Shown here one piece after another: positions 12,985-52,113 of a stretch of 64,000 nucleotides of DNA; positions within the stretch are counted from its first letter, which is position 1, and the number at the start of each line of letters is the position of its first letter. The notes under the pieces are model-generated. The model was not told the DNA's origin, did no database searches, and saw nothing but the letters and a program-made list of their open reading frames with translations. A program made the position numbers and the translations under genes. The DNA comes from Candidatus Latescibacterota bacterium. Lineage in GTDB: Bacteria; Latescibacterota; UBA2968; UBA8231. Location of the stretch: positions 2,400,001 through 2,464,000 of the forward strand of contig CBDETK010000013.1 in assembly GCA_965242865.1 (NCBI GenBank), in the 5' to 3' direction.

Positions 12985-15900
12985 TCATCGGATCAGGGCC
13001 ATTTTGCCCACGACGATGTGCGGTCCCGCTACCAGCCGATACAGGTACACGCCGGACGTTACGGGGTGTCCGTGTTGGTCTCGTCCGTCCCAGTAGAAGG
13101 TATGATAGCCCGCTTCCAACGCGGTGTCCACCAAGGTATGCACGACTTGCCCGGCGACATTGTATAGGGTCAGCCGGACGGGGCCGCTGGCGGGTAGCTG
13201 GACGTGTAGGGTCGTGGTCGGATTAAATGGGTTGGGGGCCGCTCGGGCGGCTAGGGCTGCGTCGGGCAAAGCGACCTTGGCCGCGGGGGCTTCTTCGGTC
13301 TGATCGCCTTCGCCTGCCGCAGTCTGCTCGTCCTCGGCGGGTGCTTCCGCAGTCTGTTCGTCTTCGCCTTCGGTCTGCTCGCCCTCGCCTTGGCCCGCCG
13401 CGGTCTGATCTTCTTCGTCGGACTCGTCTTCGTCGGGTACTTCCGCGGTCTCGGTCTCAGGTTCCTCGTCCTCGGTTTCCTCGGCGGGCTCGTCCTCGTC
13501 CTCGTCCTGTGCGGTGCCCGACGCGGCAACGACCGTTGACGAAAGGCGACTCGCTGTCTGCGCGCCAAAAGCGTCTGTATAGGACGCACGCGCCCTAAGC
13601 TTCTTCCCGACCATAGAGCTACCGACCGGCCAAGTGTACGACAGCGACCCGTTGGCCCCTTCAACCTCCGATTCCAAAACAAGCTCTTCGTCGGCAGTGC
13701 CCGACGCGGTAGTAATGGACAACCTCCACCGCAGCCCCGTAATCGGCGTGTCCGGGTCTGAAAGCGTCGCCGTCAGCCTCGAACCCGCCCGCGGCGGATC
13801 GGGCGATAAGGACACACTCCCATCGGTGTTTGTCCGCGGCGCGGCGGTCACCGTTGATGAATATGAACTGGAGGCGGTCTGTGCGCCGAAGGCGTCCGTA
13901 TAGGAAACACGGGCTTGGAGTTGCTTGCCGACCCACGAACTGCTCACCGTCCACGTTTTCGCTGGCAACCCGTTGGCGCCCTCCACGGCTTGCTCCTCCA
14001 CCCAATCGGATTGCCCTTCTGCTCCCGAAGGGGTCCGAGAATGCAAACTCCAACTCACCCCCGTAATCGGCGTGTCTGGGTCTGAAAGCGTCGCCGTGAT
14101 GGAACTACCTGCCTGTGGCGTCGTTGGCGACAGGGACACGCGGCCGGAGGTGTTGGGTTTGACGGGCGTGGCCGAAGCGGACACCGCCGCGCTGGTGCCC
14201 TGTCCGGTGACCGCATGCACCTCGAAGGAGTAGGCCGTGCCGTTGGTCAAGCTCGTCACCGTCTTGCTCGTGGCTGTGCCGGTGCTGGACCAAGAAGACC
14301 AACTGCCGCTGGACGACTTGTAGCGATACTCATAGCGGGTGACAGACGCGCAGTTGCTGCCCGATGGCGCACTCCAAGAAAGCGACACCTGCCCATTGCC
14401 CGGCGACGCCGAAAGCGACGACAGACTACACACCACCGGCGGCGGGGCCGTGATCGGCAACGACTGGTCACTCTGCGCCCGCCGACCCGACCCGTACCCG
14501 TCCGTATAGGAGGCGTACACTCGGATACTATACCCAACCTTCGTACGCGAAATGGGGATCTTCCTCGTCGCCGTGGTGGCGGTGGTGCTGCCGGTGACGG
14601 CCTCGTCTGCGGTCTCCTCGGACGCGCCGGTCGCGCCAAAATAGGCCCAACTCCACGACACCCGACGAATAGACCCATCCGCGTCCGACAGCGTGGCGGT
14701 CATCTGCCCCCCTGCTTGGGGCGGATTCGGCGACAGACTGATGCGGCCGGGCGTGTCGGGTTGCACCGGCGTGGCCGACGCCGACACCGCACGGCTGGTG
14801 CGTGGCCCGGCCACGGCGCGGCCTTCAAAGGAGTAGGCCGTGCCGTTGGTCAAGCCCGTCACCGTCTGGCTGGTGGCCGTGCCCGCACTCGTCCAACTCG
14901 ACCAACTACCCCCGGACGCCTTATAGCGATAATCGTAGCCGGTGACTGTGGCGCAGCTACTGCCCGACGGCGCATTCCAAGAAAGCGACACCTGCTGGTT
15001 GCCCGGCGACGCCGTAAACGACGACGGGCTACATACCGGCGGCTGCGGCGTGGCCTCGGCTGACGCGGCGGTCCCGTCGCCGTAGCTATTGACCGCCCGC
15101 ACCGCAAAGGAATACGCCGTGCCATTGGTCAAGCTACTCACCGTCTGGCTGGTGGCCGTGCCCGCACTCGTCCAACTCGACCAACTGTCGCCAGCGGTCT
15201 TCTTGTAGCGGGATTCGTAGCGCGTCAGCACCGCGCCGCCCAGCTTCAACGGCGCATCCCAAGAAAGCACCACCTGCCCGTTGCCAGCGACCGCATCCAA
15301 GTTTCGCGGCGCACTCGGCGGGCCGACCACTGCCGCGGTCGTGTCGCTGCGCGCCTGTTGGCCACCATGGTCATCCGTATAGGACACCGTCGCCAGAATA
15401 CGCACCCCCAAAAGCACGGCCCGCACCTGCAACGTCGATGACAACGCCGCGCTGGGCGGAGGATCGGCCCCGTTGGCCCCCGACACTCCCGACGCGCTGT
15501 GATACGACCAACTGAAGCGGACATCGGTCGGGTTATCTGGATCGGTCAACGTCGCCGTCAGATCGTCGCCTACCTGCGGCGCGGTCGTCGATAACGACAC
15601 ACGGCCCTTCGTATCCGACGGAGCTTCCGGCGTGGCCGACGCCGACACCGCACGGCTGGTGCGTGCCCCGGCCACTGTACGCACTTCAAAGGAATAGGAC
15701 TGGCCGTTGGTCAAGCTCGGCACGGTCGCGGTCGTCGCCGTGCTGGGGCTGGACCAATCCGACCAACTGCCGCCAGCCGCCTTGTAGCGGTATGAGTAGC
15801 CGGTCACCGTGGCGCAAGTGCTCCCCGATGGCGCATTCCAACTCAGGGATACCTGCTCGTTGCCCGGCGACGCCGTAAACGACGACGGACTACACACCTC

Positions 15901-16614: not shown

Positions 16615-17947
16615 GGACAGCCATCCCCCCCCACGCGGTGATCGGCTCCAAAATCTGGCCCCGCTTATACTGCCACTCGGCGATGCTGGTGTGCGTCGGC
16701 CCGGTCCACCGAAGCGTCGCCTGTCGGATGCCCGGCGTGGCCGTCAAGCCCGTGGGCGCGCCCGGTGGCGGTTGCACCCCCGCCACCCCCGGCAGCGTAT
16801 CCGACCAGGCACTCACCGTCTCGCCTACTCGCGCCCGCACTCGGTAGCGATAGCGGCGGTCGGCATCCACCCCTGGATGCACATAGGGCTGTGCGCCGTG
16901 GGCCTGCTGCGTCGTCCACGCCGAAGGCCACGACCCGCCGTCATACGGCTTGCTCTGCCCCTCCACCTCATAGCCGGTCGCCGACGCCACCGCCGACCAA
17001 GCAACCTTCAGTGCCGGACCCGCCTGCACTGAAACCGAACCGCCCGTGGGCCGAGCCAACCACGGCGTGACCGTATTGCTCACCGCCGAAGGCCGCCCGC
17101 CGCCGGCCCCATTGACCGCCCGCACTTGAAACCGATAGGCTTGACCCGCCGTCAAGCCTTCTACCGGGGCCGACCACCCCGCCACGGCACTACCGCTGAC
17201 CGTCGCGTCCTGCCAGTCCCCGTCCGTATCGGCCCCCTCCGCCGTCACATCCCGATACCGCCACTTGATGATGCTGGCGTGATCCGGCCCCGTCCACCGC
17301 AGCGTCGCCTCGCTCGCCCCGGCCTCGGCGGTAAACCCCGTCGGCGGACCCACCCCGGGCTGAACCCCCGCCAAAGGCTCCGCTGCCGACCACCCACTCT
17401 CCAACTCACCTACTCGCGCCCGCACCTGATACCGATACAGGCTATCCGGCGACACCCCCCGGTGAACATACCGCCGCTGGCCGACGACCTCAGACGCCAA
17501 TGACGTCCACGTTGAAGGCCATGTGCCGCCATCAAAGGGTTTGCTCTGCCCTTGCACCGCGTAGCCCGTCGCTGCCGCCACCGCCGACCACTCCACCCGA
17601 ACCTGCGTCCACCCCGACCGAAACGACACCTCCGACGGCGCAACCGGCACACCGACCACCGCCCGACTTGGATCACTTGCGGACATCCGTTCCGTGTTGG
17701 GATCGTGCCCATCGCGGTAGCGCACCGTCGCCTGCAACTGCCAACCCACATCGCCCGACACCGGCGTGTAGCTCGATAGCTCAGGATACGCCGAGGCCGC
17801 ACCCGACACCGACGATGAAGCCCCCGACACCCCGGCCCCAATCGCTTCCCATGTTCCCGTTGTGCCCAACCGACGCTGCCACTGCCAAGACGCCCCGGTA
17901 ATCTGCCCATCCGGATCGGTCAACCCCGCCACCACCCTCCGACCCAC
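16541..17947 (-). CDS. Protease P1, middle segment (Ig plus FN3 repeats) between two frameshifts
   Basis: Near-identical to in-frame stalk segments of paralogs P2-P4. Bounded by C6 (17960-17965) and C8 (16625-16632) runs that are C7 in P2. Confidence 0.7.
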   Translation of the reverse strand: MGRRVVAGLTDPDGQITGASWQWQRRLGTTGTWEAIGAGVSGASSSVSGAASAYPELSSYTPVSGDVGWQLQATVRYRDGHDPNTERMSASDPSRAVVGVPVAPSEVSFRSGWTQVRVEWSAVAAATGYAVQGQSKPFDGGTWPSTWTSLASEVVGQRRYVHRGVSPDSLYRYQVRARVGELESGWSAAEPLAGVQPGVGPPTGFTAEAGASEATLRWTGPDHASIIKWRYRDVTAEGADTDGDWQDATVSGSAVAGWSAPVEGLTAGQAYRFQVRAVNGAGGGRPSAVSNTVTPWLARPTGGSVSVQAGPALKVAWSAVASATGYEVEGQSKPYDGGSWPSAWTTQQAHGAQPYVHPGVDADRRYRYRVRARVGETVSAWSDTLPGVAGVQPPPGAPTGLTATPGIRQATLRWTGPTHTSIAEWQYKRGQILEPITAWGGMAVHGHSGNDAVVYGAASAGGWGVLSV

Positions 17948-20900
17948 TTCCGGCGGCAGCCCCCCGTCAGCACCACCTCCCCATCCTCATTCTGATTGAC
18001 GACCGACACCGACACCCGCAGGCTGTCCGACAGCACCGCGTCGGAGACCTTCACCCACACGTCGTAGCGCGCTTGGGCTTCATAATCGGCCGCATTCGCC
18101 AAATGGAGTTCCCGCGATGGCTCCGCCCCCGGCGACGCCGGCTCCTTCAATTCAAACGCACTCGCATCCGTGCCCGTTACGCTCCACGTCAGATCGTCGC
18201 CATCCGGGTCGCGGCCGATATAAGTGCCCAACAACCACGGGGCGAGGCTGTTTTCGGCTATGTCCACCGACGCCGGACCCGACACCGACGGGGCACGGTT
18301 GGAGGCCGGGCGCACCGGCGAAGTCAAAGCACTCGTCGCCGACGCTGCACCAAAAGAGTCTGTGTAGTCGGCTTGGAGGCGCAGGGACTGCCCTACGCGG
18401 CTGCTGGGGATGGTCAGAGTCCACGTCTGCGTCGCTTCTGACGCCGGCCCGGTTACACCGCCGCCGTCCGAGGCACCCTCATAGTGGGGCGTCCAATACA
18501 CCGGCTCTGCAATCCCATCTTCGTCCGACAACGTCGCCGTGAGGGATTCCTCCGCTCGCGGCGCGGTCGTCGAAAGGCTAACGACACCGGCATCGTTGGC
18601 ATCGGTAACCGACACGGTAACCGACACGGACACGTCGCCGATGGACACCGACACCGCGTAAGTGTTGTTCTTGCCAGCGTCGGCAGGCTGCTCAAAGTTG
18701 GGAGGAGGATCCTTGAACTCGAGGGGGCGCGATGTCCCCTCCTCTTTCAACCGAAAGAAGCGCGCATCCGTCCCCCCCAACTTCCACGACAACGCCGAAC
18801 CACACCCCGCACTCGCCGTGTACGTGCCTACCGCCCCAAGGGCGTTTTCCGCAAATGTCGGAGCCGTCGCCCCCGTCAGCGAGCAGACCGGTGCCCGCGG
18901 CGTCACCGCATCGCTCACCGCCGACGGCTGGCCATCCCCCGCTCCATTGACCGCCCGCACTTGAAACTGATAGGCTTGACCCGGCGTCAAGTTGTCCACC
19001 GTGGCCAACCACTCCGTTGAGGCACTACCGCTGACCGCTGCGTCCTGCCAACCCCCCCGCGTATCGGCCCCCGCCGCCGTCACATCCCGATACTGCCACT
19101 GGGTAATACTGGCGTGATCTGGACCCGTCCACCGAAGCGTCACCTGACCAGCCCCCGCCGCCGCCCGAAACCCCGTCGGAGCACCGACGCCGGGCTGGAC
19201 CCCGGCCGCATCCGGCACCAGAGCCGACCACCCACTCACCGACGCACCCGCCCGCGAGCGCACCTGATACCGATATAGGCTATCCGGCGACACGCCCCGG
19301 TGGGCATACCGCAGAGCGGTGATGTTGGTCGCCAATGACGACCAAGCCGCCGGCCAAGGGCCCCTATCAAAGGGTTTGCTCTGCCCCTGTACATCGTAGC
19401 TCGTCGCCGACGCCACCGCCGGCCACTCCACCCGAATACGGCCCCACCCAGCCGTCACCGACGCGGCCGGAGGGCCGAACACCGCCGCACTCGTGAACCC
19501 CTCGGCACGTTTGTTGGGGCCATGATTGTCGGTGTAATGCACCGACGCCCGCAGGTAATAGCCTACGTCCGACGCTGGGGGCGTGTAGCTCGAAAGTTCG
19601 GGATAATTGGTCGTCGCGCCAGTCGCACCAGCGGGCACGGACACGGGTTGCCACGAGGCGGTATCGCTCGCCCAGCGATGCCAAGCCCAACTCGCCCCGG
19701 TGAACGTCAGCCCCTCGTCCGGATCGGTCAGACGCGCCACCAACGGAACCCCTACCTGCGGTGGCTGTGGCGACAGTGCCACCGAACCGGCTTCCTCCAC
19801 ATTCACCACCGACACTGTGACCAACAGGGTGTCCGACACCGCCCCATCACTCGCGCCGGCGGCCCCACTCAAGGGCACATCCCGAACCACCACGCCAACA
19901 TCGTAGGTCGTTTTATACCCGCCGCCCGCCAACGGCACCTCATAGTTGGGTGGCTCCCGAAACTGCAAGGTGCGCTCGTGGCCAGCGTTGCCCGACGTTT
20001 GAACCAAAGTGAAACTGCTCGCATCGGCCCCAATCAAAGACCACACCGGCGCGTTTGGATTCGGATCGGTGTTCCGGTAGACGCCGACGGCAACCGGATC
20101 GGTGGCATTTGGATCGGTGACTTCATTCACCGATGGCTTCGCCGCCCCTTCAATCCTCTGGGAGAGCAAGTCAACCGTCGCCGAGGCCGCCTGTCCCTTC
20201 TCATTATTCGTGGTGACCGCCCGCACCTTGAAGGTATATATCCTGCCGCTCAAGTCCTCAATCGTGGCCGTGATTGTGTCATTGTCATTGTTCTTAGTCC
20301 AATCAAGCTCCGACCAAAGCTCGTTCTCGTCTTCGTCAAGACTCCCGTCGCTATACTCATAGTCGGTGATTGTCGCCCCATTAGAGGCCGGCTCCGACCA
20401 ACTCAAATTCACCTGCTTCGCAACCGTTGCTGTTGCCGTCAAGTCCGTCGGTGCCGAAGGAATAAAGCGAATATCGACGCTCACCACCCCATTGGTTTGC
20501 CTAATGTTCCGCACCGCGATCCCTGTGAACACATCCTGAATATTGCCATTGTAGCCCGCTGTCGAGGGGTTGCTATACGGCGTGAACTCCTTGCCAGGAA
20601 CCCATACATCGGTCGAGTCGCCTATGTTGCCGTTGTGATCCGCTGTGTAGGTCGAGTCCGCCGACCAGTAATCCAGATTATCGCCGCCTACCGTAGAGTC
20701 CGGTTTATTGCTAGGGAATCCCTTATCAGTAAAAAGTCCGTCGGCGCATTCCACATCAACGCGCTTGTGCTTTTCGTTTTGGTTGATATCGGATGTGGAA
20801 CCGTTGACCCTAACAATGGAATCGTCAATGTGCCAGATCAACAACCCGCTCCGCGGCAAGAAGTCATCGTAGTAGCTACCAGTACCACTCTGCCGATTGG

Positions 20901-21924: not shown

Positions 21925-21944
21925 AATATCCCTCCCAAAAGAGC

Positions 21945-22010
21945 TTGTGTGCCGATGGCCTGCTCCATATAATAAATGATAACATAAGATAAGGGAAAAG
22001 CCGCGGTCAA
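21945..22010. promoter_or_regulatory. Overlapping divergent sigma70-like promoters (P1 / partner S1)
   Basis: Plus strand TTGTGT-17-TATAAT (21945-21973). Minus strand TTGACC-18-TATGTT (22010-21981). Homologous elements recur in three other intergenic regions. Confidence 0.55.
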
Positions 22011-22054
22011 TGGAGACCTTCCGTCTTATTCCTCTTCAAAAGGAGTTTGGCCCT

Positions 22055-23053
22055 ATGGTAACTCAACGAACCCGTCTAGTAGTTCCCTTGGTGCTGTGCG
22101 CCCTGTTGTTGCCCTCGTCCTCAGACGCTCAAGACGAAGGCGGCTTTGAGGGAAGCCCAACAGATTTTCTCCCATTGCAGGTCGGTAATCAGTGGACCTA
22201 TACGCACTGGTATACCAACGGCCTTTACAACAGATTTGAAATCGTAGAGGGGGTCGTAAGACAATATGCCGGATGGGGAATAAAAGCTTCATATGATCCC
22301 TTGGGCCCCGAGTGGACATGGATACAGGCGATAGCAGAGAAATCCGGGTATCCTTTAACCACTCAGTATGATCTTGAATCACCATTATTCGACCTCCTCT
22401 CTTATATCGAGCTCGAGCTAACCATTGAAATTACCCATACCGAGACGATTGAGGGCCATACGTATTTTGTCTTTAGCGAGCCAGCCTACGATTGGCCACC
22501 CGTGCCAAACCTCTGCTTGGCCGGCCAGAAGGTGCGCTTCTCCGATGCGGGTGTTCTACTCATTCGCAGGAAAGAGCAAGACATCCCCGTATATGACTTT
22601 GCTCAGGCTCATATCGACAAGGACTATACCACGCCAACATATCCTGTGCTATATGACGCACACGCTCCGGTCGCGCTACCACTTGCAATTAGTCGTTCCT
22701 CTTGGGATGCAAGGCAGAGACACACTTGGCGTTGGTTTTATCCTCCTCCATTAAAGTTCGGTCCGGCATTCGTCTCTTATTTTAATGTACGGATGCTATG
22801 GGTGCGGATAGAGCATAATAATTTTGGCTCGCCTTGGTTAGGTGACGTTTATTTTTTAGCAAACTATGGGCTCGCCCGATACGAACTATTTGAATCAGGG
22901 CTTGGTTGGGCTCGAGTCTTTGAGAATTCTCTTGCGCCGGTTTCGGCGGTTATTGGCGGCAAAGAGATCGCCTATCCCTATGTTTTTGTTGGGACCAGTG
23001 TCCAGCCTACCTCTTGGGGCCAACTCAAAGCGCGTCACGGGCAGGAGCCATAG
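22055..23053 (+). CDS. Secreted partner protein S1 (PLxVGNxWxY family, C-terminal TSWGQLK)
   Basis: AAGGAG RBS, signal peptide, FLPLQVGNQWTY, ends TSWGQLKARHGQEP. Confidence 0.8.
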   Translation: MVTQRTRLVVPLVLCALLLPSSSDAQDEGGFEGSPTDFLPLQVGNQWTYTHWYTNGLYNRFEIVEGVVRQYAGWGIKASYDPLGPEWTWIQAIAEKSGYPLTTQYDLESPLFDLLSYIELELTIEITHTETIEGHTYFVFSEPAYDWPPVPNLCLAGQKVRFSDAGVLLIRRKEQDIPVYDFAQAHIDKDYTTPTYPVLYDAHAPVALPLAISRSSWDARQRHTWRWFYPPPLKFGPAFVSYFNVRMLWVRIEHNNFGSPWLGDVYFLANYGLARYELFESGLGWARVFENSLAPVSAVIGGKEIAYPYVFVGTSVQPTSWGQLKARHGQEP

Positions 23054-28211: not shown

Positions 28212-28229
28212 AATATCCTCCTAAAAGAG

Positions 28230-28295
28230 CTTGTGTACCGGTGTATTTTCATTGTATATATATCATATCTTAACATAAGGGAAAAGCCCGGTCAA
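28230..28295. promoter_or_regulatory. Divergent promoter region (P2 / S2)
   Basis: Minus strand TTGACC (28295-28290), 17-nt spacer, TAAGAT (28272-28267). Plus strand TTGTGT followed by an AT-rich -10. Confidence 0.5.
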
Positions 28296-28339
28296 TGTTG
28301 GCCTTCAGTCCCGTTCCTCTTCAAAAGGAGTTTGACCTA

Positions 28340-29299
28340 ATGGTAACTCAACGGACGCGCCTCGTGGTCTCGCTGATGCTATGCGCCCTATTGGCCCCGC
28401 CTGCCACCGCGCAGGAAGAAGGAGGCTTTGAGGGAAGCCCAACCGATTTCCTTCCGTTGGAAGTAGGTAATCAGTGGACTTATACGCACAGGTATTCTAA
28501 TAGGGTTTACGGCAGCCACGCGGTCTTTTTCGACTACGCATACGACTTGGATGCCTTTGATCCTTTGGCCTTGCTAATTGATCGGCTGACGATGGAGATA
28601 CCTGGGTATCCTTTATCTCCCGGTTTGGCAGATTCGGTAAAGCCACTTGACGACCTCAGATCCCCCGGCGCACGAGAGCTAACCATTGAAATTACTCATA
28701 CCGAGACGATTGAGGGCCATACGTACTTTGTCTTTAGCCAGCCAGCATACGATTGGCCGCCCGTGCCTACTCTTTGCTTGGTTGGCCAGAAGGTGCGCTT
28801 CTCCGATGAAGGGGTGCTACTCATACGCCAGCCGGAGCAAGACATTCCCCTATATGACTTTGCTCCGCCTTATAAATATGACTTTGCTCAAGTTCATGGC
28901 GACAAGGACTATACCACGCCAGCATATCCTGTGCTATACGACGCACACGACCCGGTTCGACTACCACTGCGTGTACGTCGTTTCTCTTGGGACGCAAGAT
29001 TGAGAATCCGTTGGCCTTTGTTTTATCCCCCCCCAAGGAGCTTCGGGCCGGCCTTCGTCACTCGTTTTACTGTTAACCCTGGATTGGGGAACGTTTATTT
29101 TCTAGAAAACTATGGGATCCTCGGATACAGTATATGGTACCCAGGGTGGGATAATGTTGCAATCTTTTCAAATTTTCTTACGACGGTTTCGGCGGTTATT
29201 GATGGCAAAGAGATCTCCTACCCCTATGTTTCTGTAGAGACAAGGGTTCAATCTACCTCTTGGGGCCAACTCAAAGCGCGTCACGGGCAGGAGCCATAG
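28340..29299 (+). CDS. Secreted partner protein S2 (paralog of S1)
   Basis: FLPLEVGNQWTY...STSWGQLKARHGQEP; AAGGAG RBS. Confidence 0.8.
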   Translation: MVTQRTRLVVSLMLCALLAPPATAQEEGGFEGSPTDFLPLEVGNQWTYTHRYSNRVYGSHAVFFDYAYDLDAFDPLALLIDRLTMEIPGYPLSPGLADSVKPLDDLRSPGARELTIEITHTETIEGHTYFVFSQPAYDWPPVPTLCLVGQKVRFSDEGVLLIRQPEQDIPLYDFAPPYKYDFAQVHGDKDYTTPAYPVLYDAHDPVRLPLRVRRFSWDARLRIRWPLFYPPPRSFGPAFVTRFTVNPGLGNVYFLENYGILGYSIWYPGWDNVAIFSNFLTTVSAVIDGKEISYPYVSVETRVQSTSWGQLKARHGQEP

Positions 29300-35908: not shown

Positions 35909-36607
35909 TCACTTGTGGAAGAGGTGTTTTACAGCACCCCAAGAGCGTTCTTGAACCACCGTAGGAGAATCGTAGCCGGGCGGGAGATCAAGGCCGACCT
36001 TATAAGGCGATGCCACATACTCGCCTTGCGCGTCCAGTACCGCATAGTAATACCAGCCACTCTGATCGTCATAAACGAACGCATAAAAGGGGTCGCCATC
36101 GCCATAGTTTATGAGGGGCGTATCATCTATGGAGATGACATAGCCATCCGCGGGGACTTCAACAACTGTATCGCAGCCGATTGGTAGTGGCTTGATTGGC
36201 AGTGGCTGGTCTCTATAAGCTATAAAGGCCGTGCCATCTGGCTGGGTAAGGAACAGCCTAGGCCCGAAACGCATAATTAATACCGCGTCTATCTCCGCTT
36301 GGCGGATGGCACTCCGCTGCCGCTGTAGGTTCTTGGGAATGCCTATCTCAGCCGGGTCGTCAATGCCGACCTTATAAGGCGACGCCTCATATTCACCACG
36401 TGCGTCCAATTCCGCATAGTACCACCAGCTATCGCTACCATAGACGATGACATAGCCGGCCGCAAACGTCTTGTCTCCCAAGCGATGGACGATAAAGGTC
36501 GTGTCATCCGGTTGGACGCGAAACCCCCATTGGTCAATGTTCTCAAAAGCCCAAACGCCAGACCCAAGCACAACCAGCAGCGTAAAAACAGCAAGGTAGG
36601 TTTTCAT
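35909..36607 (-). CDS. Secreted stand-alone pro-domain paralog T1 (two QPDG domains, C-terminal SWGAVK)
   Basis: Signal peptide and first domain homologous to the P3 N-terminus (YYAELDARGEYEASPYKVG); no HExxH. Confidence 0.8.
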   Translation of the reverse strand: MKTYLAVFTLLVVLGSGVWAFENIDQWGFRVQPDDTTFIVHRLGDKTFAAGYVIVYGSDSWWYYAELDARGEYEASPYKVGIDDPAEIGIPKNLQRQRSAIRQAEIDAVLIMRFGPRLFLTQPDGTAFIAYRDQPLPIKPLPIGCDTVVEVPADGYVISIDDTPLINYGDGDPFYAFVYDDQSGWYYYAVLDAQGEYVASPYKVGLDLPPGYDSPTVVQERSWGAVKHLFHK

Positions 36608-36624
36608 CGGGTTCTCCTATCCGT

Positions 36625-37374
36625 TCACTTGTGAAAGAGGTGTTTTACAGTACCCCAAGAGCGTTCTTGAACTGCCGTAGCAGGAGCGTATCCGGGCGGG
36701 AGATCAAGGCCGACCTTATAAGGCGATGCCACATACTCGCCTTGCGCGTCCCGTCGGCAACTATTTCGTGCATACCAAATACAATCCGCGTAGTAATACC
36801 AGCCACTCTCATCGTCATAAACAAAGGCATAAAAGGGGTCGCCACCGCCGTAGTTTATGACGTAGTAAAAGCCATCGGAAGCGGGGTTGCCAATGCGAAC
36901 GTCTATGGGGATAGAATCGCAGTTCACACAAACTGAATATCCCGAGTCTTCTTCATAGTCTAAGAGTATAGCAAGGACATAGCCTCTCCAATTAGCAAAA
37001 AAACTCGTGCCATCAGGCTGAGTAAGGATCATTGCGGAGAAACCCACTTGCAACACCACGTCTCTCTCCGCTTGGCGCACCGCACTTCGCTGTAGGTTCT
37101 TGGGAATGCCTATCTCAGCCGGGTCGTCAATGCCCACCCTATAAGGCGACGCCTCATATTCACCACGTGCGTCTAGTTCCGCATAGTACCACCAGCTATC
37201 GATACCAAAGACGATGACGTAGCCATCCACAAACGTCTTGTCTCTCAAGTGATGGACTTCAAAGATCGTGCCATCCGGTTGGGATGCAAATCCCGGTTGG
37301 TCAATGTCCTCAAAGGCCCAAACGCCAGACCCAAGCGCAACCAGCAGCGTCAAAACAGCAAGATATTTTCTCAT
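36625..37374 (-). CDS. Secreted stand-alone pro-domain paralog T2
   Basis: Paralog of T1; ends ERSWGTVKHLFHK. Confidence 0.8.
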   Translation of the reverse strand: MRKYLAVLTLLVALGSGVWAFEDIDQPGFASQPDGTIFEVHHLRDKTFVDGYVIVFGIDSWWYYAELDARGEYEASPYRVGIDDPAEIGIPKNLQRSAVRQAERDVVLQVGFSAMILTQPDGTSFFANWRGYVLAILLDYEEDSGYSVCVNCDSIPIDVRIGNPASDGFYYVINYGGGDPFYAFVYDDESGWYYYADCIWYARNSCRRDAQGEYVASPYKVGLDLPPGYAPATAVQERSWGTVKHLFHK

Positions 37375-37386
37375 CGGGTACTCCTA

Positions 37387-42114: not shown

Positions 42115-42133
42115 AATACCCTCCTAAAAGAGC

Positions 42134-42183
42134 TTGTGTGTCGATGTCCTTTCCAATATCATAGAGGAAAGGCCGTCGGTCAA
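42134..42183. promoter_or_regulatory. Divergent promoter region (P4 / S4)
   Basis: Plus strand TTGTGT-17-TATCAT. Minus strand TTGACC with only 14 nt to TATGAT. Confidence 0.45.
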
Positions 42184-42228
42184 TAGTGGCCTTCAATCCC
42201 GTTCTTCTTCAAAAGGAGTTTGGCTTTT

Positions 42229-43185
42229 ATGATAACTCAATTGACGCGCCTCGTAGTCCCGCTGGTGCTATGCACCCTGTTGGCCCCGTCCGCAGACGCA
42301 CAGGATGAAGCAGGCTTTAAGGGGAGCCCAACAGATTTTCTCCCGTTGCAGGTCGGTAATCAGTGGACTTATACGCACAGTTATTATAACGACGTTTACG
42401 GCAATTACGAGACCTTTTACGGCGACGTATATGACTTGGAGTACTTTGATCCCTTGTTTCTGCTAGCTCATCGGCTGATGATGGAGATACCTGGGTATCC
42501 TCTATCTCCCGGCTTGGCTGATTTCGTATGGCCGCCTGACGACCTCAGATTCCCTGTCAGAAGAGAGCTAACCATTGAAATTACCCATACCGAGACGATT
42601 GAAGGCCATGAATACTTTGTCTTTAGCGAGCCATACGATTGGCCGCCCGTACCCACTCTCTGCTTGGCCGGCCAAAAGGTGCGCTTCTCCGATGCGGGTG
42701 TTCTACTTATACGCCAGCAGGAGCAAGACATCGCCCTATATGATTTTGCTTCGCCTTATGAATATGACTCTGCTCAAATTCATAGCGACAAGGAGTATAC
42801 CACGCTAGCCTATCCTGTGCTATACGACGCACACGACCCGGTCCGACTACCACTTTTAGTTCGTCGTTTCTTCTGGGACGCAAGATTGAGAAGCCGTTGG
42901 CATTTATTTTATCCCCCTCCATTAAGCTTTGGTCCGGCATTCGTCACTCGTTTTGTTGTTAACCCTAGATTGGGTGACGTTTATTTTCTAGCAAACTATG
43001 GGTTCGCCCGATACGAAGTATGGGAACCAGGGTGGGATTTGCTTCGAGTCTTTGAGAATTCTCTTGCGCCGGTTTCGGCGGTTATTGGCGGCAAAGAGAT
43101 CGCCTATCCCTATGTTTTTGTTGGGACCAGTGTCCAGCCTACCTCTTGGGGCCAACTCAAAGCGCGTCACGGGCAGGAGCCATAG
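42229..43185 (+). CDS. Secreted partner protein S4 (paralog of S1 and S2)
   Basis: FLPLQVGNQWTY...TSWGQLKARHGQEP. Confidence 0.8.
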   Translation: MITQLTRLVVPLVLCTLLAPSADAQDEAGFKGSPTDFLPLQVGNQWTYTHSYYNDVYGNYETFYGDVYDLEYFDPLFLLAHRLMMEIPGYPLSPGLADFVWPPDDLRFPVRRELTIEITHTETIEGHEYFVFSEPYDWPPVPTLCLAGQKVRFSDAGVLLIRQQEQDIALYDFASPYEYDSAQIHSDKEYTTLAYPVLYDAHDPVRLPLLVRRFFWDARLRSRWHLFYPPPLSFGPAFVTRFVVNPRLGDVYFLANYGFARYEVWEPGWDLLRVFENSLAPVSAVIGGKEIAYPYVFVGTSVQPTSWGQLKARHGQEP

Positions 43186-46100: not shown

Positions 46101-48793
46101 AAACCCGTCGACGCATCGCGATCCGCACTCGGAAAATACACCACCTTATACCGCCGGATCGGCAACCCCCCATCCGACGCCGGCGGCTGCCAACGCAAGA
46201 CCACCTGACCATCGCCAGCCACCGCCTCAAACTCCCGCGGCGCACTCGGCCGACCGACCACCGACGCACTCGTGGCCCCCGACGCACTTTTGTTGGAGCC
46301 ATGACGGTCGGTGTAATGCGCCGTCGCCCGTAGCTGATACCCTATATCATCCCGCTGTGGCTTGTAGGACTCAGCATGTGCCAACGCAATCTCCGTCCAC
46401 GTATCCGTCGTACTCGACCCCCGTTCCCACCACCAAACCGGAACCCCCACCACGCCATCCGGATCGGTCAAGGTCGCCACCACCACCTGCCCCACTTCCG
46501 GCCTCCCCCCCGTCAGCGAAACCGACCCTTCCTCCTCCGCATTCACCACCGTCACCGACACCGCTTGTGTGACCGTGACTTGGCCAGCGCGGGCTTGGAT
46601 GGTCACCGAGTAGGTCGCGTTCTGCAAGGTTTCAAAATCGGGCGGCTGCCGAAAGTGAAGCTCCCGCGTCGTCCCAGTGCCCTGTAACTCAAAGGCATTC
46701 CGAGTGTCGTTCTCCAGCGTCCAATTCGGGGTATTGCCCAAGCCGGTCACCGTATAGGTGGCCACCTCTGTATCGTCCTGATCGGGCGTCACGTCCTCGA
46801 CAAAATCCACCGCGCTGGGACCTAACGCTTGGGGCGTGGCCGTCAGGGTGGCTGAATTTCTCCCCAACCCGTTGACCGCCGCGACTTCAAACGTGTACGC
46901 CGTGTTGTTGATCAAATCTCCGGCTTCGATGGTCGCTACGATCCGTCCATTCTCAGTGGCGGTTGTCATGCTCCACCCGCTCCAAAGCATCGTATCAGGA
47001 CGATATCGGTATCGGTAGGAGACGGTCGGGTCGTTCGAAGCAGCCCACCGTAGCGTCACTTGGCCCGCTTGGACTTCAGCAGTCAAATTGTCCGGAGCTG
47101 CCGGCAGCGTAAGGGCTACGTCCACAAGGATGTTGTCGCCAGCAGCGTCATACCGAATGTCAGTCAGGGCTAAGTTCACATCACCAGGATCCCGATTCAT
47201 CCATCCACCTGTGGTCGCTTGGCGCAAGCCGGCCCCAGCGGTCAGGCTATTGACCGCCGACACGTTAGCTTGGTCGAAGTTAGTATCGTCTCCGGGATCG
47301 TCTCTGGGATCGGATATCCTACCGGCCGCAAACGGATCGGAGAGCATGTCGTAGTATTCGGGGATGTTGGGGCTCGCATCCTGATCCCGGGCGTCGCGGT
47401 AGCGTCGCTCATCGGCGACGATGAGCAGAGGACGCTCGACTCTGAAGCGCCGACGCCAGACCATCAGGCCCTGATCGGCGGCATTGGGGGCGGCATAGTC
47501 ATAGAAGGAGACATAGCGCCCGCCAAACGGCTGTGTGGTACGGCGATTAAGCAGAAATTCGACAACCCCCCGGTCAATCAAATGCGTCGTCCCCGGAGCG
47601 ATGGCGTAATCGTTCTGAGCGTTCAGGATCTCTGTCGGCGTCAGCCAACCCAAGTCGCGTAGATAGAAGGGGTTGATTGGATTGGGACAGGAGCGGTAGG
47701 CTATGTAGTATGCGTTGTTGTGCGTGACCGGCCCTTGATCACCGCCGCCCTGCATCAGGGTCCACCCTAGCTGGTTGGCAGCCCTGTCCACCATATTCGG
47801 TGGATTATTTCTTCGTGTGTTTCCGTACCTGTTATTCGAGTCCGCCCAATCCCCCTCGCCATGATTCAGGCCGAGCAAATGGCCGATTTCATGGGCGTGC
47901 GCACCAATGCCAGCGAACTCGTCGACGTCAGGAGTAGTGTTGCCGAACCCCTGACGCTCCCCCATCACATAGCGGTAGCCGACCTGCATGGCTTGAGTAG
48001 GATTTTCCCGAGTAGTCTCATCCGCTTGGGGATGCAGTTGGCTGGGCTGGTTGCCACGCGTTACTAAGTCGACATCGCGATTGTTAAAGACGACCCCGGA
48101 ATACAAAAAAAGGAGCTTTCGGCGCAAGAGGCGGGTAAAGGGGTAGTCGGTGGAAGTGTGATGGGGGAGGCTGATACCCGTGTTCCAAGCGGCGGCGGGC
48201 AACGACAACGAGTCCAACGTCGCTTGGTACGCGGCATCCCAGAACTCATCCATAGTGGTACTCTCGGCATAGTGTTCCTTGGTATTCGGCAACTCAATCC
48301 AGCGGGGAAAGTCGTCCGTACCTGTCTCTGTCGTGGCAGGATTGACCATGCGCACGTGTAGGTTGAACACGCCGTTGGACACCGAATCGAAGTACGCCCG
48401 CACACTGCCGAATACCTGGGGCAGTCGATAGTTGTTTGCTACCCTGACGTTTGGCCCGACAAAGGGCGTGGGATGCCCGCCTTCAGCAGCCGAGTAGCCA
48501 CCCGCCAGCATCCGCAGGAAATCGCGCCGGCGATACGAAGCGGCGGTCAGCCCCCCGTCTTCTTCGCCGAAGGGCCGGTCGTAATTGTGATATTGATAGC
48601 CAAATCTTGAGGTTGAGGCCCCGGCGTTTTGAAAGGTGACCAGCACCACATCCAGCGTACACGCCGCAGCCCGTGCGGCCAAGATGGGGTTATTCGCATG
48701 CGGCCATGTCGAAAGCGAACCGCGGGCGAATCCGGCCGAGGCACAAACCAGCAATCCGAAGCAAAGCACACACAATACACGAAGCGGATTCAT
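43157..48793 (-). CDS. Protease P5: metzincin-like protease plus stalk, two frameshifts, lacking the sorting domain
   Basis: ATG 48793 overlaps the upstream stop (ATGA). GSVRAYFDSVS, HEIGHLLGLNH. Relative to paralogs: -1 at ~44926 and +1 at 43307. Same 3' junction as P3. Confidence 0.75.
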
Positions 48794-49692
48794 TCGCGAC
48801 CCTCCTGCTTGATAAGCCCCCAAGAAAACCACTCAATGCTACTTGCGTCCGACGACGAAGCCTGACCCGCCGCCGCCTGGGCTTCCCGAACCGTCACGGT
48901 ACGCCCATCGAGCACCGCGTGTTTCGCTTTTTGTATGTTTTTGAATAGCGGAGCATCGTCGTCGTAGAGTGCCATCTGACATTGTTGGACACCGAAACCC
49001 TTTAGGAAGATGAGAGCTGCCCCCAACCCGACCGTTACCCCCGACTCACCTGTCACCCCCGACTCGCTTCCCAACAATTCGTACCAATTAGAGGGACCAG
49101 CGGCCTCTGCGCCGCCACTAAAGCCGAAATAATTGTCGTGGGTGTGCTCGGAGCGGTTTTCCCGTGCGGTGACGCGGAGGGTTCCCTCTGGGGTGGGGAC
49201 GGTATAGCTAACTTCGCCGCTGGCGCCGCTGGCTCCGCTGGCTCCACTGGCGCCGCCAAAGCGGAACAGGGCTTGCTCGCCATCGGCGGTACGCTCCATC
49301 AGTTGGTCGCCTACCCACCGTAGCTTCTTACCTGCTATGAACTGCGGCGGCACCGGCGGCCAATACTCCGGCATATCGCTGATGACGAAGTAGGTATGGC
49401 CATCGATAACCTCGGTGCGCAACACCGAAAGAGTGAATTCGGGTATGCCGTATGGAGCCGTGTAGTTGGTCCATTGGCTATACACATCGTCGTTTTCGTC
49501 GTCGCTTTCGTAGTAGTTATGGCTATACATCCACGAATTGCCCACGGCCAGCGGCAACCAGTCGCTGGCGTCAGCGATGGCAGACCCGTTGCCCAACAGG
49601 CCGACCAAGACCGCCGCCAGAAGGTGCTTTACTGGCCTCAAAGGCCGCGACAGAATGGGAGACGAGAGCGTCAAAAGCATACTGTTTTGCAT
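48790..49692 (-). CDS. Secreted partner protein U1 (PLAVGNSWMY family, C-terminal FSWGLIK)
   Basis: WLPLAVGNSWMY, TEVIDGHTYFV, WPPVP shared with the S family; translationally coupled to P5. Confidence 0.8.
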   Translation of the reverse strand: MQNSMLLTLSSPILSRPLRPVKHLLAAVLVGLLGNGSAIADASDWLPLAVGNSWMYSHNYYESDDENDDVYSQWTNYTAPYGIPEFTLSVLRTEVIDGHTYFVISDMPEYWPPVPPQFIAGKKLRWVGDQLMERTADGEQALFRFGGASGASGASGASGEVSYTVPTPEGTLRVTARENRSEHTHDNYFGFSGGAEAAGPSNWYELLGSESGVTGESGVTVGLGAALIFLKGFGVQQCQMALYDDDAPLFKNIQKAKHAVLDGRTVTVREAQAAAGQASSSDASSIEWFSWGLIKQEGRE

Positions 49693-49724
49693 GATGATTC
49701 CTCCTTAGATAGGATGCCGAGAAG

Positions 49725-49850
49725 CTAAGTGTTCAGACGGTAAAACATTGAGTTTGTATTCCTCTGGAATTTTCGCCGTAGGGCCGATCCTGCGGAGGCA
49801 CAAACCAGCAAGCCGAAGCAAAGCGCATACAAGATATGGAGCCGATTCAT
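49725..49850 (-). pseudogene. Relic 5' stub of a P5-type protease
   Basis: MNRLHILYALCFGLLVCASAG matches the P5 signal peptide; same ATGA coupling to U2. Confidence 0.7.
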
Positions 49851-50698
49851 GGGCTGCCCTCCTGTTTGACGGCTCCCCAAGAAAACCACTCAATGCTACT
49901 TGCGTCCGACGATGAAGCCCGACCAGCGGCCTCTTCCCGGGCTTCCCGAATCGGCACGGTACGTCCATTGATCACGGCCTGTTTGGCGGTTAGGATGTTT
50001 TTGAAGTCATAGACATCGGAATGACCGCGAAGAAAGGAACAATATTCTATGCCGAAGCCCTGTATGAAGGTGGCCCCCCCTACTTCGTAAGAATGAACCA
50101 ACGGCGGACCATAATACTCCGAGTCGCTCGCACCCCCTACGCCCTCTTCGTCATCAAAATCAAAGCGGAACAGTCCTCCCCATCGGGTGACTTGGGTAGC
50201 TCCCTCTTGGATGGCGACGGCATAGTTAGTTTCTCCGCTGGCACCGCTAGTTCCACTAGTGCCGCCAAAGCGAAACAGCGACCGCTCGCCATCGGCGGTG
50301 CGCTCCATCAGTTGATTGCCCACCCACCGCAGCTTCTTACCCGCGATGAAATACGATGGCGGCGGAGGCCAGAAGTCGGGCATGTCGCTGATAACAAAGT
50401 AGGTATGGCCGTCAATGACCTCGGTGTGCAATACGGAAATGCTGAACTGCGGAGTGCCGAGGGTGTCGAATTGAGCCGTGTAGTTAGTCCATTGGCTCCG
50501 GTCCTTTTCGTATTCGCGATATCGATGTGCATACATCCACGAATTGCCCACGGCCAGCGGCAACCAGTCGCTGGCGTCCGCAACAGCCGACCCGCTGTCC
50601 AACAGACCAACCAAGACCGCCGCCAGAAGGCACTTCACAAGCCCCAAAGGCCGCGACAGAACGGGAGACGAGGGCGTCAAAAGCATACTGTTTCGCAT
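49847..50698 (-). CDS. Secreted partner protein U2 (paralog of U1)
   Basis: WLPLAVGNSWMY...IEWFSWGAVKQEG. About 100 bp of upstream sequence is duplicated (49690-49787 vs 50696-50792). Confidence 0.8.
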   Translation of the reverse strand: MRNSMLLTPSSPVLSRPLGLVKCLLAAVLVGLLDSGSAVADASDWLPLAVGNSWMYAHRYREYEKDRSQWTNYTAQFDTLGTPQFSISVLHTEVIDGHTYFVISDMPDFWPPPPSYFIAGKKLRWVGNQLMERTADGERSLFRFGGTSGTSGASGETNYAVAIQEGATQVTRWGGLFRFDFDDEEGVGGASDSEYYGPPLVHSYEVGGATFIQGFGIEYCSFLRGHSDVYDFKNILTAKQAVINGRTVPIREAREEAAGRASSSDASSIEWFSWGAVKQEGSP

Positions 50699-50739
50699 GA
50701 TGATTCCTCCTTAGAGTAGGATGCCGAGAGGCTAAGTGT

Positions 50740-51022
50740 TCAGACGGTAAAACATTGAGTTTGTATTCCTCTGGAATTTTCGCCGTAGGGCCGGTCGTAA
50801 TCGTGATAGTCATAGCCAAACTTCGCCCCCGTCAATACTCGGCAGCACCACGGTATCGTCAGAGAATGAACTGCTGGGGAAACTTCATGGTGAACACGCT
50901 GTTGGGATTGACCGGAACGGGCCTGATACCTCGTCCCCGCCGGGTTCATACCCGCATACAAAGTCTTGGCCGTGTGCGCTTGCCGTGAACAGGATAAGCA
51001 GCATGAATATGCGAAAAAGCAT
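50740..51022 (-). pseudogene. Chimeric protease relic: P1-type 5' end plus a P5-type fragment
   Basis: MLFRIFMLLILFTASAHGQDFVCGYEPGGDEVSG from 51022, then FGYDYHDYDRPYGE in another frame (cf. P5 FGYQYHNYDRPFGE). Confidence 0.7.
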
Positions 51023-51041
51023 AATACCCTCCCTAAAGAGC

Positions 51042-51095
51042 TTGCGTGCCGATGTCCTTGCCAATATCATACATAAGAGAAAGGCCGCCGGTCAA
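51042..51095. promoter_or_regulatory. Divergent promoter with a shared bidirectional -10 (relic / S6)
   Basis: Plus strand TTGCGT-17-TATCAT (51065-51070). Minus strand TTGACC-18-TATGAT (51071-51066). Confidence 0.5.
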
Positions 51096-51156
51096 TAGAT
51101 TTTTCCCTTCTGTTCCTCACTTCATCACTTCACTACAAAAGGATGTTGGCCTTATA

Positions 51157-52113
51157 GTGACTCAACTCCTCGTAGTCCCACTGGTGCTATGCACTCTGTT
51201 AGCCCCGTCCGCATTCGCACAGGATGAAGCAGGCTTTGAGGGGAGCCCAACGGATTTTCTTCCGTTGCAGGTCGGCAATCAGTGGACCTATGAGCACAAT
51301 TATTGGAACCACTACTACTCCTTGGGTAGACACCACGAATATTTAGCAAGTCCACCCCTCAGGCGGGTGCTCCTACGGTCGATATTGGACATACCCGGGT
51401 ATCCCTCCTTCTACGAATCTTTCGGCACGGATGAGGCTTGGAGAAATCGGCAAAATCCGCCTGATAACTTAACCTCTATTACTAGAAGGTTCACCATTGA
51501 GATTACCCATACCGAGAAAATTGGGAGCAACGAGTACTTTGTCTTTAGTCACGTAGGGTACGATTGGCCGCCAGTACCTAATTTTTTCTTGGCCGGCAAA
51601 AAGGTGCGCTTCTCAAGGCACAGTGACGAATTTAACACGCTAGCGTTTGGAGAGGATGAGGGAACGGGTCGCCCAGATTTATATCGATTTCACCCGTACG
51701 ATATTCTTCCTTACTCCGTTCCAGACCAGCCCCTGCTGCTAGATAAAAATCTTCGGGGCACACTTTTCGTCGGGCGCACACTTTCGTATGCCAATGATAA
51801 CGTATTTATAGAAGTTAAGCCTCTTACTCACTGGGATCAGGAAATTGTGGCTTCTTTTGCCATAAGTAGCGAGGACACCTTTTTGGGTGAAGTTCTGTTT
51901 GTAACAGGATATGGGCTCGCCATGTACGACCTATCTTGGTGGGATTATGGTGAAGCACCACTCACTTACTTTCACCTTTCCATTATCCCGGTTTCCGCGG
52001 TTATCGGTGGCAAAGAGATCGAATTTCCGTATGTCGCCCCTGCATTATGGACTCATGTTCAACCTACCACCTCTTGGGGCCAACTCAAAGCGCGTCACGG
52101 GCAGGAGCCATAG
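51157..52113 (+). CDS. Secreted partner protein S6 (most divergent S paralog)
   Basis: FLPLQVGNQWTY...TTSWGQLKARHGQEP. The homologous ATG is ATA (51154), so a GTG start at 51157 is assumed. Confidence 0.75.
   Translation: MTQLLVVPLVLCTLLAPSAFAQDEAGFEGSPTDFLPLQVGNQWTYEHNYWNHYYSLGRHHEYLASPPLRRVLLRSILDIPGYPSFYESFGTDEAWRNRQNPPDNLTSITRRFTIEITHTEKIGSNEYFVFSHVGYDWPPVPNFFLAGKKVRFSRHSDEFNTLAFGEDEGTGRPDLYRFHPYDILPYSVPDQPLLLDKNLRGTLFVGRTLSYANDNVFIEVKPLTHWDQEIVASFAISSEDTFLGEVLFVTGYGLAMYDLSWWDYGEAPLTYFHLSIIPVSAVIGGKEIEFPYVAPALWTHVQPTTSWGQLKARHGQEP

Follow-up and report, generated by a model that had tools for sequence, protein, structure and literature searches.

A tandem array of giant genes with metalloprotease-type heads, recombining stalks, and small tagged neighbor genes in a Latescibacterota genome from sponge metagenomes

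The window analyzed here is a 64,000-nucleotide (nt) stretch of a Candidatus Latescibacterota genome, located on a 5.6-Mb contig of a 6.0-Mb assembly (completeness, 93.6%; contamination, 6.8%), and the sequencing runs that contain this genome are sponge metagenomes. Positions 12985 to 52113 of the window hold five co-oriented giant genes on the minus strand, designated P1 to P5, together with two relics of the heads of such genes and eight small genes for secreted proteins, designated T1 to T4, U1, U2, S1, and S2 (Table 1). Analyses of open reading frames (ORFs), domains, and tblastn matches confirmed the five giant genes and the two relic stubs, which had been described in an original prediction made from the sequence without database searches. 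The T genes lie on the plus strand, head-to-head with P1, P2, P4, and one relic; S2 and S1 precede P3, and U2 and U1 precede P5. The spacers of S2, S1, and P3 are 17 nt long and carry GGAG. All eight small proteins, which range from 232 to 355 amino acids (aa), end in SWGxxK, so that the placement of genes with this ending at the 5' ends of the giants was also as predicted. When inspected by eye, all eight N-termini were found to be hydrophobic and Sec-like, with AxA-like cleavage sites and without a canonical lipobox.

Fibronectin type III (FN3) domains were detected by Pfam in all five giants. A C-terminal sorting domain of the type IX secretion system (T9SS) had been predicted for P1 alone, and within the window this was the case. 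The domain matched TIGR04183 with 27.7 bits (cut-off, 23) over residues 216 to 287 of the 299-aa end piece of P1, and FlgD_ig was matched at the same end by Pfam (2.7e-11). A tblastn search with the P1 end found no further copy within the window, and P2 to P5 also gave no FlgD_ig match in the Pfam scan.

The N-terminal heads of the five giants are of two subtypes, subtype A in P1, P2, and P4 and subtype B in P3 and P5. When compared with the M6 metalloprotease model TIGR03296, for which the cut-off is 110.8 bits, the subtype-A heads all scored under the cut-off, with 99.6 bits for P1 (E value of 2.9e-28), 103.1 bits for P2 (2.5e-29), and 78.1 bits for P4 (1e-21). The P5 head gave a weak match that was likewise under the cut-off (33.6 bits; E value of 3.8e-8). 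PF05547, with a cut-off of 22 bits, was exceeded by P1 (25.6 bits) and P4 (22.6 bits), P2 fell under it (20.5 bits), and neither P3 nor P5 matched this model. The P3 head had no match in Pfam or NCBIfam, and a comparison with PDB sequences returned nothing at E<=0.1. The HExxH motif is nonetheless kept in all five heads, as HEYGH in P1, P2, and P4, HEWGH in P3, and HEIGH in P5, and in all nine of the subtype-A heads that were aligned, the H, E, and H of this motif and a downstream E are invariant. The heads had been called divergent, and they are: those of P1, P2, and P4 share just 45 to 56% protein identity with one another, and residues 376 to 720 of P3 are 29% identical to the P1 head. On the sequence evidence, all five heads in this array are predicted to be M6-like zinc metalloproteases of two subtypes. 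They resemble the M6 immune inhibitor A family, which includes NCBIfam NF052323 ("T9SS-dependent M6-like"), in their HExxH zinc site, their matches to TIGR03296 and PF05547, and the T9SS sorting domain of P1. They differ from this family in that the heads stay below the TIGR03296 cut-off, with subtype B scarcely matching, and in that the proteins are far bigger and carry FN3/cadherin-type stalks.

Table 1. Features of array 1 and its immediate neighbor, in window coordinates
Feature	Position	Strand	Remarks
P1	12985..21924	-	2980 codons, in three ORFs as assembled; ORFs 1 and 3 in the same frame
P1 head, subtype A, M6-like metalloprotease (predicted)	about 20245-21924	-	
P1 stalk core, common to the other copies	16130-20148	-	
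P1-specific distal FN3-type stalk	about 13300-16130	-	
P1 T9SS type A C-terminal sorting domain	13024..13239	-	TIGR04183, FlgD_ig
P1 poly-G run	16625..16632	-	One extra G, +1 frameshift
P1 poly-G run	17957..17969 (~17963)	-	G6, -1 frameshift
T1, small secreted partner-type gene	22010..23053, start probably 22055	+	Divergent from P1; 3' end overlaps the P2 end by 29 nt
P2	23025..28211	-	Subtype-A head; intact ORF of 1728 aa; stalk cut at P1-equivalent 16297; no sorting domain
T2, small partner-type gene	28295..29299	+	Divergent from P2; overlaps the P3 end
P3	29271..35891	-	Subtype-B HExxH head; intact ORF of 2206 aa; stalk cut at P1-equivalent 16130; no sorting domain
S1, small secreted gene	35909..36607	-	Two copies of the P3 N-terminal domain plus SWG tail; 17 nt upstream of P3
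S2, S1 paralogue	36625..37374	-	Begins 12 nt past the P4 stop codon
P4	37387..42114	-	Subtype-A M6-like head; intact ORF of 1575 aa; stalk cut at P1-equivalent 16635; no sorting domain
T3, small partner-type gene	42220..43185	+	Divergent from P4
P5	43299..48793	-	Subtype-B head and stalk in two ORFs; likely ATG at 48793 overlaps the U1 stop codon; no sorting domain
U1, small secreted gene, distant T relative	48790..49692	-	DNA 96.5% identical to an array-2 copy
Relic, signal peptide of a subtype-B head, between U2 and U1	49782..49889	-	69% identity to P5 residues 1-36
U2, U1 paralogue	49847..50698	-	
Relic, subtype-A head	about 50885..51022	-	45 codons with Shine-Dalgarno site and signal peptide, then stop; divergent from T4; 62-74% identity to residues 1-34 of P1, P2, P4
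T4, small partner-type gene beside the subtype-A relic	51046..52113	+	
AAA_21-type ATPase gene, directly past the P1 end of the array	11742-12938		PF13304, E value of 1.2e-35

The stalks of these divergent heads were found to be far more alike. In a self-comparison of the window, P1 was 93.4% identical to P3 over positions 16130 to 20148, 92.3% identical to P2 over 16297 to 19293, 92.4% identical to P4 over 16635 to 18879, and 90.3% identical to P5 over 16130 to 18879. The description of this DNA as near-identical holds for its fully identical tracts of 440 to 934 nt but not for the stalks as a whole, whose identity among the copies of the window is 88 to 96%. The DNA that P2 to P5 share with P1 extends for 2.3 to 4 kb and ends at one of three P1-equivalent positions, 16130, 16297, or 16635, and the region from 12985 to 16130 is specific to P1 within the window. 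The genes end differently beyond these points. The ORFs of P2 and P3 continue for 29 nt on the strand opposite the T gene that converges on each, and P4 stops within the spacer that holds the ribosome site of S2. The final codons of both P2 and P3 (...MAPARDAL; 23025-23053 and 29271-29299) are the antisense of the tag-coding end of the T genes. T2 with the P3 end and T3 with the P5 end form a single duplicated block (28095-32084 versus 41998-45940; 88% identity). Tandem duplication with breakpoints in the stalk and just past a T gene would yield exactly such junctions of T genes and stalks.

A second, larger array of the same family (array 2; C13:694000-749200) was found on the same contig, 1.7 Mb from the array in the window (array 1), and it brings the number of stalk-core copies to ten, with pairwise identities of 87.7 to 96.5%. 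The heads of its five giants are of subtype A in Q2, B in Q3, C in Q4 and Q5, and D in Q1, and the subtype C and D heads gave no protease match in Pfam or NCBIfam. Two array-2 genes end in sorting domains, the DNA of which is 89 to 90% identical to that of P1, and Q5 (2937 aa) is the sole member of the family that is both intact and anchored. Array 2 also contains T-like and U-like genes and seven copies of a further small family, V (223 to 227 aa). Homology of V to the subtype-C head was considered as well, and none was found.

A repeat-rich region in a metagenome-derived assembly with 6.8% contamination could in principle be one in which one or two genes, or strain variants, have been falsely arranged in tandem. 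The heads and small genes are, however, unique and divergent, the stalks differ from one another by 4 to 12%, and the 5.6-Mb contig carries a second array organized in the same way. Sequencing runs were also compared through their assembled Logan contigs, a form of data that does not reach long-range joints or minority variants. In run X1, the contig depth was 164 to 180 for the unique parts of P1 and 700 to 2500 for bins of the stalk, a gap that is expected from many (ten) copies. The junction between P2 and T1 was also present in run X4, from another study, and the junction between the P3 head and its stalk was present in run X6, from a third study. A loose end at 20148 in X6 was considered as a possible swapped head and rejected because it proved to be an orthologue of P3. 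Positions 20267 to 21921 were not covered in X6, an absence that carries no weight. Array 1 is correctly assembled and mis-assembly has no support in these data; we regard an artifact of this kind as extremely improbable.

The stalk copies have exchanged sequence with one another. The closest relative of each copy shifts along the alignment, and the longest identical tracts join P3 to Q4 (934 nt), P5 to Q5 (536 nt), P2 to Q3 (534 nt), and P1 to P2 (466 nt, with identity resuming past a poly-G run). Given the identity of each pair, the probability that such tracts arose by chance is 1e-9.5 to 1e-16.5. Since these pairs are otherwise just 92 to 96% alike, the long identical tracts demonstrate that gene conversion has been recent and that it acts between arrays 1.7 Mb apart. 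When the P5 region was compared stepwise with array 2, identity was 94 to 100% in U1, 68 to 84% in the first ~1.1 kb of the head, 92 to 100% in the next ~1 kb, and 61 to 84% in the proximal stalk. Among 30 other genomes, the stalk core had no match above 86% identity or beyond ~340 nt, and short matches were found in 9 of the 30. Recombination of the stalk, within and between the arrays, is thus real and recent. The original prediction had proposed homologous recombination in the stalk as the means by which heads are switched onto one anchored end; its recombination stands, with identical tracts of up to 934 nt and a mosaic P5 head, and it reaches further than had been proposed in that the tracts cross between the arrays.

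The reading that we favor, at a probability of roughly 55%, is that the locus is a duplicating, gene-converting tandem array of Sec-exported giant surface proteases and partner genes, and that it is one of two arrays of a ten-member family. The proteins of this family share one plan, in which a head that varies is joined to a long FN3/cadherin-type stalk and some members also carry a T9SS sorting domain. A stalk core of 2.3 to 4 kb has been homogenized by recent gene conversion both within and between the arrays. The array would have grown by segmental duplication with breakpoints inside the stalk and just past the partner gene, and such duplication would leave anchorless copies upstream of one anchored copy. 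Its current evolution would be one of birth-and-death combined with gene conversion, to which the stubs, frameshifts, and mosaic heads may be ascribed.

The frameshifts were compared across the ten copies. Two changes alter the frame of P1: 1 nt is missing from a G7 run at ~17963, and the G run at 16625 to 16632 is 1 nt too long. The frame is the same before the first change and after the second. At ~17963, eight copies have G7 and P1 has G6, and the run is interrupted in P4. At 16625 to 16632, P1 has G8, Q2 has G10, and P2, P3, Q1, and Q3 have G7; P5, Q4, and Q5 have an interrupted run there, and P4 ends before it is reached. These two in-frame poly-G runs of the stalk therefore vary between paralogues, and they explain both breaks of P1 and that of Q2. 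Their differences in length may reflect either slippage hot spots or homopolymer sequencing error. A form that was shorter by one letter at 16625 accounted for 836 of 1860 depth units in X1, 71.6 of 71.6 in X2, and 11.3 of 11.3 in X4; because P2 is identical around the site and has the shorter run, this form is indistinguishable from P2. In P5, the changes are a loss of TT to T at ~44927 and a single-base gain near the end of the gene, both outside long runs. The remaining breaks in array 2 are of +1 in Q1, -47 nt in Q3, and -1 in Q4.

With breaks in 6 of the 10 family members (P1, P5, and Q1 to Q4), those of P5, Q1, Q3, and Q4 being outside long homopolymers, with two stubs, and with Q5 as the only intact anchored member, it could be argued that the arrays are debris of unequal crossing-over among repeat-rich genes, in which only one or two intact members still function today. 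Against this, the ratio of replacement to synonymous change (dN/dS) was 0.17 to 0.45 in all 45 stalk pairs, anchorless pairs included, with synonymous changes outnumbering replacements, and these values are well under 1. In addition, three anchorless ORFs of 1575 to 2206 codons are still open, the junction of P2 and T1 is preserved in a run of another study, and the partner genes are intact and conserved. We consider it quite improbable that the copies are mere decaying duplicates and continue to favor a duplicating, gene-converting array of surface proteases.

We investigated whether the small genes are tied to the heads beside them. Of 2691 candidates, 202 belonged to the T family at E<=1e-3, and none of the 120 that were listed was annotated with a Pfam domain. 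A Pfam search with all eight small proteins of the window and an NCBIfam search with T1, S1, and U1 returned nothing but one chance-level row for S1 (E value of 0.16). At 13 related loci in other genomes, a T gene adjoins a subtype-A head in seven, six of these being co-directional and upstream of the head and one divergent; another locus has a T4-like gene, an S gene, and a P3-like head in succession, and at the other five the T copies have no detected head. Of 20 other genomes from the genus, eight had U homologues. A subtype-B head match followed U at 9 of 10 loci in these eight genomes, with five of the matches reaching the edge of the locus and four being short and N-terminal (34 to 97 aa), and one of the ten loci had no subtype-B head match after U. 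The two S1 copies of the P3 N-terminal domain are 59% identical to it over 118 aa (E value of 4e-38) in the first copy and 43% identical in the second. As judged from these gene neighborhoods, the pairing of T with subtype A and of U and S with subtype B is conserved in other species of the genus. That gene pairs have been kept across species supports a functional link between head and partner, which may act through inhibition, folding, or docking. In the reading that we favor, the small proteins would be cargo-specific accessory factors that keep the protease latent or dock it, by analogy with the potempins described below.

The predicted structures of the small proteins were also compared with known folds. 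The AlphaFold 2 model of T is an open beta-barrel with a predicted local distance difference test score (pLDDT) of 70.4 and a predicted template modeling score (pTM) of 0.70. It showed a borderline likeness to the YmcC/DUF1849/LolA type, the best Z in a VIA search being 8.4, which is in the common range, and the best E value in Foldseek being 5e-3; no match to the PDB was found by Foldseek at E<=0.001. In a protein atlas, T fell among unnamed clusters with a DUF3108-like lead at 0.77. The S model was poor (pLDDT of 56.6; pTM of 0.38). Homology between T and the subtype-A heads was considered and rejected (hhalign probability of 0.4%).

The SWGxxK ending proved to be much more widespread than the arrays. 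On the main contig, the motif [ST]WGx[ILVM]K lies at the end of 61 reading frames, with 3 to 9 further residues after it in 57 of the 61, and the tag is roughly TSVExxSWGx[ILV]K, the TSVE usually preceding the motif. Two of the frames, of 61 and 84 aa, are very short and possibly not genes. Single-linkage clustering, which joined T and U, divided the 61 frames into 14 clusters, eight of which are singletons that include both very short frames, a PD40 propeller, and a solute-binding-like protein. The larger clusters consist of 24 proteins of ~300 aa (with a CBM9-like domain in one of two scanned), the 15 T/U proteins, six V proteins with a beta-helix (five of the seven array-2 copies of V, which end in the tag, and a sixth copy elsewhere), four Cache-domain proteins, two S proteins, and two FGE-sulfatase-like proteins. 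The 10 tagged proteins that were scanned contained six different Pfam domains, the tag tail is spanned by no Pfam or NCBIfam model, and a literature search with six spellings of the tail motif found no paper on it. A profile of the last 32 residues gave 69 matches in this genome and 15 to 72 matches per genome in all 18 other genomes of the same genus searched. In 12 genomes from two other families of the class, it gave 0 to 4 matches each, with a best E value of 0.0096. The tag is a general one, borne by about ten unrelated secreted families, and is not a marker of partners. The small SWGxxK genes had been proposed as cognate partners of the proteases; of this proposal, their standing as conserved neighbors of particular head subtypes holds up.

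The tag genes are positioned nonrandomly with respect to T9SS cargo genes. A gene end encoding a sorting domain lay within 3 kb downstream on the same strand for 14 of the 61 tag genes, whereas 500 trials of random placement averaged 2.5 and never exceeded 7; outside the arrays, the count was 14 of 42. Within 12 kb, the count was 24 of 61 (19 of 42 outside the arrays), compared to a mean of 7.4 and a maximum of 15 in 500 trials. The T9SS translocon gene sprA is present in the genome, as a 2150-aa open frame that matched TIGR04189 with 481.9 bits, over the cut-off.

Among individual loci, one operon (L033; G000:C13:2108001-2117000) encodes a tagged protein of the ~300-aa family with no Pfam match, two proteins ending in FlgD_ig/CHU_C domains, and a parvulin-type isomerase. 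At about a dozen similar places, tagged ~300-aa proteins open operons of 600- to 890-aa proteins with FlgD_ig/CHU_C ends (of the type ...VAVAY).

A comparable arrangement is known from Flavobacterium, in which T9SS type B cargo genes have PorP/SprF-like partner genes adjacent to them. Both there and here, a cargo-specific accessory gene, here a putative one, lies beside each T9SS cargo gene genome-wide, but the partners in the present genome come from unrelated families that are united just by a short C-terminal tag. As a speculative and rather unlikely extension, the tag may be a hitherto undescribed T9SS-linked sorting or docking signal, known so far from one genus, through which tagged proteins ride on or dock to neighboring cargo; partners and anchorless giants would then assemble around one anchored member, and stalk recombination and poly-G slippage would reshuffle the heads shown to the sponge host.

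Four of the five giants of the window lack the anchor, and we considered whether they could nevertheless be expressed. P2 to P5 each have their own ATG, Shine-Dalgarno site, and signal peptide, and the open frames of P2 to P4 extend over 1575 to 2206 codons. A common motif, TTGACC-N17/18-TAxxxT, and an AGGAGG site lie upstream of P1, P2, and P4, although the number of promoter-like sites was not above that in shuffled controls (6 versus 3.4 +/- 2.0 expected). Anchorless giants also occur elsewhere. In array 2 and in two other species, an anchorless subtype-D giant, a T-like tagged gene, and a subtype-A M6 giant form a triad (L017:6315-19894, L018:5314-20914, and G000:C13:703518-714695). The subtype-D heads of these triads are 49 to 52% identical between genomes, and in L017 the subtype-A giant bears a sorting domain. 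The T-like tagged gene of the L017 triad is fused to a W domain. In addition, a singleton locus of the present genome (L048:3798-10858; G000:C13:2643798-2650858) has a U gene whose sequence extends into the beginning of a subtype-B giant of 2067 aa. This giant contains FN3, He_PIG, and cadherin-type domains and gave no sorting-domain match. Given these anchorless giants elsewhere and the start signals, a missing anchor alone is no sign of a silent cassette, and the anchorless copies may work as they are.

A stronger version of this last point would have the anchorless giants be functional as encoded, exported or held through SWG-tagged proteins or through stalk-to-stalk contact with the anchored member, so that the anchor would be shared physically rather than by recombination. 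The intact long ORFs of P2 to P4 with their start signals are consistent with such a role, as are purifying selection on the stalk, the triads of array 2 and the two other species, the singleton pair of U and the 2067-aa giant, and the enrichment of tag genes upstream of T9SS cargo genes. Against it, the ends of P2 and P3 are accidental read-through into T-gene antisense, the truncation points differ between copies, and we know of no piggy-back export by a T9SS. We consider it unlikely as an account of the locus.

The original prediction had instead taken P1 as an expression and anchor site and P2 to P5 with their partners as stored heads, which recombination in the stalk would move to P1 and thereby change the displayed protease. 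All copies are direct repeats that share 2.3 to 4 kb of stalk with P1, so that a crossover in the stalk could fuse any upstream head to the P1 anchor. The conversion tracts, including that of 466 nt between P1 and P2, show that stalk copies recombine, mosaic heads are flanked by near-identical DNA, the whole array has one sorting domain, and the stalk copies remain under coding constraint in every pair. No joint between a P2 to P5 head and positions 12985 to 16130 was observed in the assembled contigs, but these do not reach joints of such range, and the result does not count against the model. A crossover between direct repeats, however, deletes the copies in between and is hence one-way, and P1, the sole anchored gene of the array, is frame-broken as assembled. 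Furthermore, P2 to P5 have Shine-Dalgarno sites and signal peptides of their own, and P2 and P4 also have the promoter-like motif, unlike classical silent cassettes, and the anchorless giants conserved in two other species and in the singleton here argue that an anchorless gene need not be a stored one. We consider a dedicated cassette system unlikely. In the duplicating, gene-converting array that we favor, fusion of a head to the anchor would be a possible by-product of the architecture rather than a demonstrated switch.

Several observations weigh against the favored reading as well. The fold predicted for T is unlike those of known protease inhibitors, and the T genes are divergent from the heads here and co-directional with them in most relatives. 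U1 is 95 to 100% identical between the arrays while the neighboring half of the head is just 68 to 84% identical, and partner and head are by this measure not strictly co-varying. For T, any co-variation with head identity was too weak to call. Simple duplication leaves unexplained how heads of 45 to 56% identity come to sit on stalks of 90 to 96% identity; this needs either long-running homogenization or repeated replacement of heads, and the latter comes near to what was originally proposed. No genome of the same species, with which the gene order could have been compared, was found in the search.

The closest known system is the cluster of KLIKK peptidases and potempins of Tannerella forsythia. 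The KLIKK peptidases are described as a T9SS-secreted cluster with divergent catalytic heads and a shared C-terminal part, and the potempins are described as lipoproteins of 98 to 132 residues that are proven inhibitors, each encoded beside its peptidase gene (PMC4404884, PMC9890683). The two systems are alike in having divergent heads on a shared part and a small, secreted, specific gene beside each peptidase gene that is conserved across genomes. They differ in several respects. T, U, and S are 232 to 355 aa long, lack a lipobox as judged by eye, are SWG tagged, and belong to no known family, and the shared part is here a stalk of 2.3 to 4 kb homogenized by gene conversion. Moreover, four of the five genes in the window lack a sorting domain, T is divergently oriented, and inhibition by the partners is putative here.

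Rhs and contact-dependent inhibition (CDI) loci, in which orphan toxin-immunity cassettes are kept and one complete gene is accompanied by partial copies that share the DNA of its constant region, offer a second comparison. P2 to P5 are likewise partial copies that share constant DNA with the complete P1, a small gene lies beside each variable part, and recombination in the constant part could change which variable part is displayed. The polarity is mirrored, however, in that it is the N-terminus that varies and the C-terminal export part that is lacking. The partial copies have starts and signal peptides of their own and so do not qualify as silent copies, and the variable part is a predicted protease rather than a toxin with an immunity protein. 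The gene-conversion variation systems pilE/pilS and vlsE are similar to the arrays in being multicopy families with segmental conversion tracts and some broken donors, but differ from them in that the tracts here lie in the constant stalk, not in the variable part, and in that the copies are not promoterless. A search of the literature for Latescibacteria, sponge, and metalloprotease, which did not extend to supplementary files, found no paper, and among the passages found of a paper on sponge Latescibacterota, FN3 is mentioned just in a list of domains.

Sponge symbionts have not been cultured, and little is known of the ways in which they shape the surface that they present to the host. In this locus, proteases and partners are combined in the manner of the KLIKK/potempin clusters, in a lineage other than the genus from which those were described, and the protein families involved have no existing model. 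It is also a clear case of concerted evolution, with ten multi-kilobase stalk copies in two distant arrays that are raw material for varying surface proteases. Its most novel element is the C-terminal tag, abundant in this genus, and the link of this tag to T9SS cargo genes. Should the tag turn out to act in sorting or docking, the biology of type IX secretion would gain a new element, and cargo-associated proteins of this lineage could be found by means of a simple sequence feature.

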